DNA of 64,000 bases, from positions 25,732,001 through 25,796,000 of the forward strand of contig CM097885.1 in the NCBI GenBank assembly GCA_044892525.1. Reading direction: 5' to 3'. This DNA is from Schmidtea polychroa (Eukaryota). This document shows, one piece after another, positions 44,942-45,379 of this stretch. The notes under the pieces were generated by a model that worked only from the letters and a program-made list of their open reading frames with translations, was not told the DNA's origin and made no database searches. Within the stretch, counting starts at the first letter, position 1; every line of letters begins with the position of its first letter. Position numbers and translations under genes: made by a program.

Positions 44942-45379
44942 TTAGAAATCGACCAATGAAATTATCTCATTTCGAACATTGTCAACAAATTCTCTATACT
45001 CCAAATTTCTCAACCCCAACATGACAACCTTTCCACTAGCAAACACGTTGACACATATAGGGTTATATTTTAATAGTCTTAGTGCCGGAAACAATTCCAG
45101 TTCAAACATACAATCACATTTTTTCGACATGTTATATAGATTGATACTATGTCCCATATCCATAGTAACGGTAATTGATTGGATTTTAATATTATTTATT
45201 CGATATTGTAATTTATTAATATCCAAAGGTTTCTTACATCCCATGATTCTGCATTTACCAGTCTTGAAAAATATTATCGGATATTTCCCACTTCTATCGA
45301 TAATTTGCTGGGGTTTCCCTGGTGGGAACCTCATATTCGATACATCAAAATTTCCTCGATAATTTATATTTGCTAACAT
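44942..45379 (-). CDS. TATA-binding-protein-like protein (145 aa)
   Basis: Two TBP-type repeats: IIFFKTGKCRIMGCK and FELELFPALRL...VNVFASGKVVMLGLR (compare TBP LIFSSGKMVCTGAK and YEPELFPGLIY...LIFVSGKVVLTGAK); IKIQSITVTMD resembles FKIQNMVGSCD. Confidence 0.82.
   Translation of the reverse strand: MLANINYRGNFDVSNMRFPPGKPQQIIDRSGKYPIIFFKTGKCRIMGCKKPLDINKLQYRINNIKIQSITVTMDMGHSINLYNMSKKCDCMFELELFPALRLLKYNPICVNVFASGKVVMLGLRNLEYREFVDNVRNEIISLVDF

Follow-up and report, generated by a model that had tools for sequence, protein, structure and literature searches.

A TATA-binding-protein-like gene of a Schmidtea polychroa Maverick and a candidate late-promoter box that accompanies its family

A Maverick/Polinton element in the genome of Schmidtea polychroa encodes a 145-amino-acid protein with a TATA-binding-protein (TBP) fold, and this protein is a genuine conserved feature with relatives in many other Polintons. 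From its sequence and that of the surrounding promoters, we consider it probable that the Polinton TBP is a late-gene factor, one that would recruit host TFIIB and RNA polymerase II (Pol II) to a box, (T/C)ATAAACA, found upstream of most of the packaging and putative virion genes compared. The preliminary description of this DNA had guessed at a late-gene transcription factor, and the candidate target box supports the guess as to a function that we infer.

The window, by which we mean the whole 64,000-nt stretch analysed here, comprises positions 25,732,001-25,796,000 of the forward strand of S. polychroa contig CM097885.1 (assembly GCA_044892525.1). The Maverick context proposed earlier for the TBP gene is supported by a bounded 33,433-bp element with the core gene set: terminal inverted repeats, a target-site duplication, a family B DNA polymerase (PolB), an rve integrase, an A32 ATPase and an adenain protease are all present. 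The element and its main genes are as follows.

26942..60374, unstranded: Maverick/Polinton element of 33,433 bp, bounded by terminal inverted repeats and flanked on each side by the 6-bp target-site duplication TACAAC
43681..44091, minus strand: conserved 136-aa gene, often adjoining TBP, likely ssDNA-binding by reading; no Pfam match; canonical TATA upstream
44942..45379, minus strand: Polinton TBP-like gene, 145 aa, ATG start; lobe 1 without helices, lobe 2 complete
45479..46105, plus strand: A32-type packaging ATPase (Pfam Pox_A32, E 3.6e-7, above cut-off)
46124..46657, plus strand: basic 177-aa protein, likely virion core, labelled from position and composition; no Pfam match
46719..47816, plus strand: rve integrase with chromodomain (Pfam rve E 1.1e-5, Chromo E 0.0014, both under cut-off)
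47762..48817, plus strand: likely minor capsid (penton), predicted from gene order; no Pfam match
48810..49175, plus strand: conserved 121-aa small protein, likely a virion protein
49172..50395, plus strand: likely major capsid, 407 aa, predicted from gene order and size; no Pfam match
50340..50807, plus strand: adenain-type protease (Pfam Peptidase_C5, E 4.6e-6, above cut-off); the 90 nt before its first ATG are without a box
53894..57286, plus strand: family B DNA polymerase, recognised by motifs in the translation and likely protein-primed; no Pfam PolB match; without a box

The capsid candidates are conserved ORFs of fitting size and order that have no Pfam match, and Pfam left most neighbouring gene clusters of the Polinton loci nameless. 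Among these is a conserved 160-aa gene (L097:2851-3330 and 22 other loci), exonuclease-like by reading and without a Pfam match, that often adjoins TBP and has the box upstream in 15 of 26 instances. The element itself is of unusual length, about half of it consisting of tandem arrays and nested inverted repeats (26942-41900 and 57800-60374), and includes a perfect 2.4-kb inverted pair (29961-32349 and 37268-39656). The integrase gene holds a candidate 84-nt GT-AG microsatellite intron of ATT repeats (47107-47190), which would be poly-Ile if read through in frame; the integrase match in other subfamilies breaks near this site. A 103-aa ORF (42571-42882, plus strand) has a weak Bcl-2 match under the cut-off (E 0.01) and points away from a 166-aa ORF, the spacer between the two containing CCAAT and TATA words. 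Two MFS transporter ORFs without introns and a Tc5/pogo-type DDE transposase lie outside the element (1240-2715, 18566-20011 and 13096-14001).

The frame of the TBP gene stops nine codons upstream of its start with no earlier ATG, giving an open frame of 154 aa. The preliminary description had reported a 145-aa TBP-like ORF and proposed a Pfam search and structure prediction as checks; its position, strand, PF00352 match and predicted fold are all confirmed. The PF00352 match (E 5.7e-14; score 52.2 bits, cut-off 22.9) is a single stretch covering residues 63-125. Searching PDB sequences returned TBPs or TBP fusions as 35 of the 36 matches listed (best E 1.3e-8), and a family profile reached a TBP among solved-structure sequences at E 3e-21. 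Structural prediction with AlphaFold2 yielded a confident model (pLDDT 95.5, pTM 0.84) whose top Foldseek match had an E of 5.6e-9 and which compared by VIA with cellular TBPs at a Z of 13.2 and an rmsd of 2.4-2.7 Å over 141-145 residues.

Signatures of both TBP repeats had been claimed for the ORF. Repeat 2 alone passes Pfam, whereas repeat 1 lies below Pfam detection and is recognised by fold and motif. The first repeat is indeed shortened: residues 1-61 of the model form four strands and no helix while repeat 2 is complete, N69 and F116 are spaced by 34, compared with 47 in canonical TBP, and G125 and Q158 by 20, compared with 33. The word 'minimal' fits the short subgroup to which the window TBP belongs, but not other family members, whose first repeats are longer (spacing 33-74).

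A protein search with the ORF found 93 relatives at 37-97% identity, of which 80 form our alignment A1. A profile search with A1 (E 1e-10 or better) gave 761 representatives including cellular TBPs, the best 150 of the 761 being mostly the Polinton TBP family. Metagenomes contributed 123 matches, and among the best 80 we found Polinton genes wherever the flanks were long enough. In the S. polychroa genome there are at least 150 intact TBP-gene matches at 99-100% identity (a first look gave 4164 candidates, which is not a copy number), and other subfamilies there carry TBPs 54-62% identical to the window TBP. Comparing the window TBP with five full-length or near-full-length subfamily genes of this genome (at least 134 codons each) gave a dN/dS of about 0.08-0.22. 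The Polinton TBP family is thus large and under purifying selection. Some other S. polychroa TBP copies end early (L128, L133), and residue 94 of the window TBP, a stirrup position, differs from 18 of 19 other top-scoring copies examined. IMG/VR gave no relatives for the TBP alignment, for that of the ATPase or for the capsid ORF, and the ESM Atlas held TBP clusters with uninformative taxa. Four contig sets, whose RNA status is a guess and whose contigs show neither start nor strand, cover the TBP gene within 41900-50900 and speak neither for nor against its expression.

We compared the family with cellular TBP residue by residue, using the residue list in Table 1 of PMC12529657 and a manual mapping of yeast numbers from repeat symmetry and model strands. 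Cellular TBP (PF00352) and the Polinton protein have in common the two-lobed saddle, F116, F190, F207, N69, P191 and an acidic C-terminal stirrup. The Polinton protein differs in being about 30 residues shorter, in its helix-free lobe 1, in the loss of F99 and N159, and in polar residues that replace hydrophobic base contacts. Three of the four intercalating phenylalanines of canonical TBP (F99, F116, F190 and F207) are therefore present, and among N69, N159, V71, V122, V161 and L205 only N69 is retained, V71 being N, V122 R, V161 T and L205 N. Helices H1 and H2 and the stirrup of the N-terminal lobe are missing, while the acidic C-terminal stirrup is kept at the sequence level.

These changes are characteristic of the family as a whole. 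We aligned 183 family sequences, for which 209 of 235 proteins had passed a motif filter before a length filter was applied; the motif filter itself fixes N111, F113 and G116 in this set. Across the 183, the DNA face shows V71 to N in 74%, V122 to R in 96%, T124 to M in 98%, N159 to S/T in 97%, V161 to T/S in 96%, I194 to R in 79% and V203 to C in 82%. L205 is N in 80/80 rows of A1, which were chosen independently of the motif filter. F116 is retained in 97% and F190 in 99%, and the position of the lost F99 is K22 in the window TBP (K 31%, P 26% and R 9% across the family). In the C-terminal stirrup, which contacts TFIIB, the acidic residues E186 (E93) and E188 (E95) are kept in 92% and 98% of sequences. 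Of the altered positions, I194, V203 and L205 are the three sites that change the specificity of yeast TBP in the mutant TBPm3 (PMC1636458).

Conservation of this kind bears on a second proposal of the preliminary description, that the protein is a dominant-negative TBP mimic, which would sequester host TFIIB or block host promoters and so dampen host transcription. The kept TFIIB stirrup would suit such a decoy, as would the absence of helices from lobe 1, of one intercalating Phe and of N159, and a weak TFIIB contact is predicted in the absence of DNA (see below). A decoy, however, needs no re-specified DNA face, yet R44, M46, C109, N111 and the three phenylalanines are near-invariant across the family. 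At least 150 intact, near-identical copies in one genome would be awkward for a general inhibitor unless silenced, and the box described next would be left unexplained. The mimic is thus the less favoured reading, given the family-specific conservation of the DNA face, and we regard it as distinctly unlikely.

The word ATAAAC was first noticed on reading the upstream regions of ATPase genes, nearly all of which have it. We then ranked all 4096 six-mers by their occurrence at -70 to -10, with loci thinned at 80% identity and early and late classes assigned by gene type: the ATPase, core, penton, capsid and PLA2 genes (n=67) against TBP, three SSB-like genes, PolB and two accessory clusters (n=111), with integrase, protease, the 121-aa gene and all remaining clusters kept outside the test. 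ATAAAC ranked first, present in 52/67 virion and packaging regions and 8/111 of the other class (Fisher p 1e-22, which overstates independence as the loci are related). On the opposite strand it occurred in 1/67 regions, and shuffles of the 67 had a mean of 3.8 and a maximum of 11. It lies upstream of ATPase in 15/15 cases and of TBP in 2/55, and canonical TATA lies upstream of TBP in 22/55. The median position of the box is -38 from the ATG, and that of canonical TATA in the other class is -41. Within -70..-15 the box precedes the penton gene in 9/18, capsid in 7/11, integrase in 6/15, protease in 2/7 and the 121-aa gene in 1/7 cases. It is found in two deep lineages whose ATPases are 36-40% identical, a split common to the TBP and ATPase trees.

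In the window, seven copies of the box lie on the plus strand within about 45447-49137; the window as a whole has 31 observed against 50 expected. The TBP gene itself is preceded by a candidate promoter of another type.

45406..45413, minus strand: canonical TATA TATATAAA, a candidate host-type early promoter that begins 34 nt upstream of the TBP start
45446..45453, plus strand: TATAAACA, a candidate late box roughly 32 nt upstream of the ATPase start
46091..46098, plus strand: candidate late box some 32 nt upstream of the basic 177-aa gene, within the 3' end of the ATPase gene
46574..46581, plus strand: box copy within the core-protein gene
46653..46660, plus strand: copy of the box some 65 nt upstream of the integrase start
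47742..47749, plus strand: GATAAACA, a copy of the box; the likely minor capsid ORF has its first ATG 19 nt downstream
48709..48716, plus strand: copy of the box some 100 nt upstream of the 121-aa gene
49130..49137, plus strand: candidate late box in the 121-aa gene, with the likely major capsid gene following about 41 nt downstream

The frequent placement of boxes in the 3' end of a preceding gene, and their resemblance to AATAAA, would be expected if the box were a polyadenylation-like signal of the upstream gene, or else a by-product of codon usage or A+T content. Either is extremely unlikely: an A precedes ATAAAC in 0/52 cases, the ATPase box of the window has no same-strand gene before it, and the 52 observed far exceed the shuffle mean.

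A different question is which protein reads the box. It may be a real promoter element read by a host TBP paralogue or a forkhead protein, with the viral TBP otherwise employed. The forkhead consensus is RYAAAYA, which ATAAACA fits, and the host has several divergent TBP paralogues. The first base of the box is T in 33/52 copies, which then differ from canonical TATA at base 7 alone, and TATAAACA, one base from the canonical consensus, might be used by host TBP. Other forkhead words are nevertheless rare in these regions: ATAAACA occurs in 42/67 against 1/67 for GTAAACA and 3/67 for ATAAATA, with none on the opposite strand. The position of the box is that of a TATA box, and its first base is C or G in 19/52. 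The box is also absent from the Polintons examined that lack this TBP family. A host reader is, in our judgement, unlikely.

This last observation comes from control Polinton contigs found by ATPase alone (L157-L161), which sit in bacterial genome bins and are likely mis-binned eukaryotic elements. In L157 a member of the Polinton TBP family and the box are both present. The bins of L158-L160 gave no TBP match, and the 12 upstream regions read there, for 11 genes, are without the box; the three are one ATPase clade of partial contigs with a richer G+C of 51-56%, and a TBP gene could lie outside the assembled part. On L161 (contig G004:C86) Pfam found an unrelated TBP, one missed by the Polinton TBP family profile. 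The 22.9-kb contig carries ATPase, integrase, protease, PolB and capsid-like genes together with the following pair.

L169:2476-3042, minus strand: unrelated TBP of the G004:C86 element, 189 aa (Pfam E 1.9e-11)
L169:1778-2533, minus strand: TFIIB-like gene overlapping this TBP, with a TFIIB repeat that passes the cut-off (E 4e-6) and a zinc ribbon that does not (E 3e-5)

The G004:C86 TBP is without the acidic stirrup residues, and the ATAAAC box is absent from 13/13 upstream regions of its element, in which no common motif is evident (a single element). One apparent box before the integrase was rejected, as it preceded an internal Met and the full ORF starts earlier, without a box. The box thus tracks this TBP family and not Polintons generally, among controls that represent two lineages and of which three of four contigs are partial. 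Co-occurrence of the box and the TBP gene could also reflect common ancestry.

The neighbourhood of the gene is conserved to different degrees. Among 27 loci with both genes, TBP lies upstream of ATPase on the same strand in 23, divergently in 3 and downstream in 1; in S. polychroa the two adjoin in 31/32 loci examined. The divergent layout described earlier holds for the window, where the starts are 99 nt apart (ATPase ATG at 45479), and is usual among S. polychroa subfamilies, but as a conserved head-to-head arrangement of the family it is rejected. Four loci (L125, L130, L133 and L154) have ATPases 87-97% identical to that of the window and TBPs only 54-62% identical (compared over 44942-46105), with higher synonymous distances for TBP (1.5-4.7) than for ATPase (0.4-1.2). 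Because TBP divergence exceeds ATPase divergence, this suggests module exchange at the TBP/ATPase junction, with the box apparently staying in place. Searched with a distant ATPase, the S. polychroa genome yielded close subfamilies only.

At greater depth the TBP and ATPase trees have the same deepest split. In a 46-row TBP tree, which is unrooted and has few outgroups and no labelled TRF2 or giant-virus rows, a branch (96/93) separates the Polinton TBPs, all on one side of it, from those of the host and of archaea. Being separate from the S. polychroa TBPs, the family does not stem from a recent capture. The stirrup sequence EPELF is the same as in eukaryotic TBPs and may be a weak hint to the origin of the Polinton protein.

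No TFIIB-like ORF was found in 344 kb of family loci, mostly partial. Complex prediction of the Polinton TBP with a TFIIB core (P0235, 92% identical to a host exon), made without DNA, scored 0.40 against 0.00 for the best control, with runs agreeing in at least 94% of contacts and partner pLDDT of at least 85. The mark used is passed by 51/78 solved and 2/108 mismatched pairs, and scores at or below 0.60 take in only 5/78 solved pairs and all four passing mismatches, so that the result gives weak support. TBP and TFIIB are a textbook pair, and because of this the pass may reflect memory. The host itself encodes a canonical TBP and at least five further divergent TBP paralogues, two of which share an open frame (L115-L121). 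Its genome also has two clusters (G000 C3:38.2-39.1 Mb and C1:23.8-24.2 Mb) of TFIIB-like copies, at least 13 in all, which are divergent, intronless and about 300 aa long. One of the copies is 34% identical to canonical TFIIB; no intact element surrounds the three examined (L109, L110 and L114).

A model for the late-gene factor can be assembled from these observations. The TBP gene would be expressed early from its host-type TATA promoter, and the altered concave face of its product would prefer (T/C)ATAAACA over TATAAAAG. The N-terminal lobe of TBP contacts the 3' half of the TATA box (PMC1636458), and it is in this half, at base 7 (C), that the box departs from TATA; the loss of F99 and appearance of R44 and M46 in the corresponding part of the protein are, we infer, linked to that change. 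The kept acidic stirrup would dock host TFIIB and so bring Pol II to the virion genes. Lobe 1 may contribute in a further way. In canonical TBP its helices and stirrup are surfaces for TFIIA, TAF1, Mot1 and Brf1, and their loss would free the Polinton TBP from control by these factors.

Gene and box co-occurrence would suit any sequence-specific binder, and the protein might instead occupy the box as a repressor of virion genes when the element is integrated, or act there in replication or packaging. Such roles appear very unlikely to us, as the acidic residues that recruit TFIIB are conserved and the boxes stand at promoter distance from gene starts. Box promoters are in addition poor in other core elements: Inr-like words occur in 8/67 regions of the virion and packaging class against 49/111 of the other class, and CCAAT in 3/66 of the box class. 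Because few other core elements are present, these promoters would need an activator.

Other viruses offer precedents. Beta- and gammaherpesviruses encode viral TBPs (vTBPs), among them EBV BcRF1 and HCMV UL87. KSHV ORF24 is reported to have a TBP fold with a polar DNA face (PMC12529657), and herpesvirus vTBP pairs with a variant TATA box before late genes, which have minimal promoters (PMC12529657, PMC6541308). ORF24 is described as a 752-aa protein with all four phenylalanines and without the acidic TFIIB residues (PMC12529657), which binds Pol II itself and acts as part of a six-protein complex at a TATT box (PMC12529657, PMC6541308). The Polinton protein, in contrast, has 145 aa, keeps the stirrup, has no partner gene that we could see and is associated with (T/C)ATAAACA; of the extra terminal domains, acidic loss and TATT box that mark ORF24-type vTBPs, it has none. 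By analogy, the Polinton TBP likely works like a herpesvirus vTBP, in far simpler form.

Large-DNA-virus TBP-like models (Nucleocytoviricota and nimaviruses) gave 26 matches at E 0.001 or better and have a common fold with the Polinton protein, although identity in the structural matches is only 7-19%. Most TBP-encoding large DNA viruses encode their own RNA polymerase, whereas the Polinton element does not. The TBP relative TRF2/TBPL1 has lost most intercalating phenylalanines; the Polinton TBP keeps three and lies outside the host and eukaryote branch, in a tree without a labelled TRF2 row.

The core gene set of the element is common to adintoviruses (animal Mavericks) and MELD viruses (Starrett et al. 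2021, PMC8502044). A 'TBP' label stands in the legend of Fig. 5 of that paper; the readable text of its animal adintovirus maps (Fig. S2) has no TBP label, and the accessible text contains no TBP-family description, residue analysis or promoter box, nor is the carrier of the Fig. 5 label evident from it. The accessible parts of PMC12220804 and 10.1101/2022.05.25.493380 make no mention of a Polinton TBP. Within the partly available sources that our literature search returned, there is no description of the Polinton TBP family or of the box beyond that bare figure label.

More tentatively, and with a confidence that stops a little short of calling it probable, we suggest that the sequences may point to a one-protein late-transcription system, in which the 145-residue TBP with its re-specified DNA face would by itself redirect host TFIIB and Pol II to its own box, outside TFIID-type control, and that Polintons may have adopted basal factors repeatedly, as the unrelated TBP and TFIIB of G004:C86 would illustrate, many of them running an early-to-late programme. 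If the late-gene reading is true, Mavericks own a switch for late-gene activation. For elements without an RNA polymerase, the timing of capsid genes bears on whether they are still viruses. With a conserved factor and box, there is a promoter that can be mapped, a protein that can be assayed and a sequence by which late genes of unannotated elements can be marked, and the family is a natural experiment in how far TBP can shrink and how its DNA face can be re-specified at the positions that alter specificity in yeast. The Polinton TBP would then be a convergent equivalent, in much simpler form, of the herpesvirus late complex with its six proteins.
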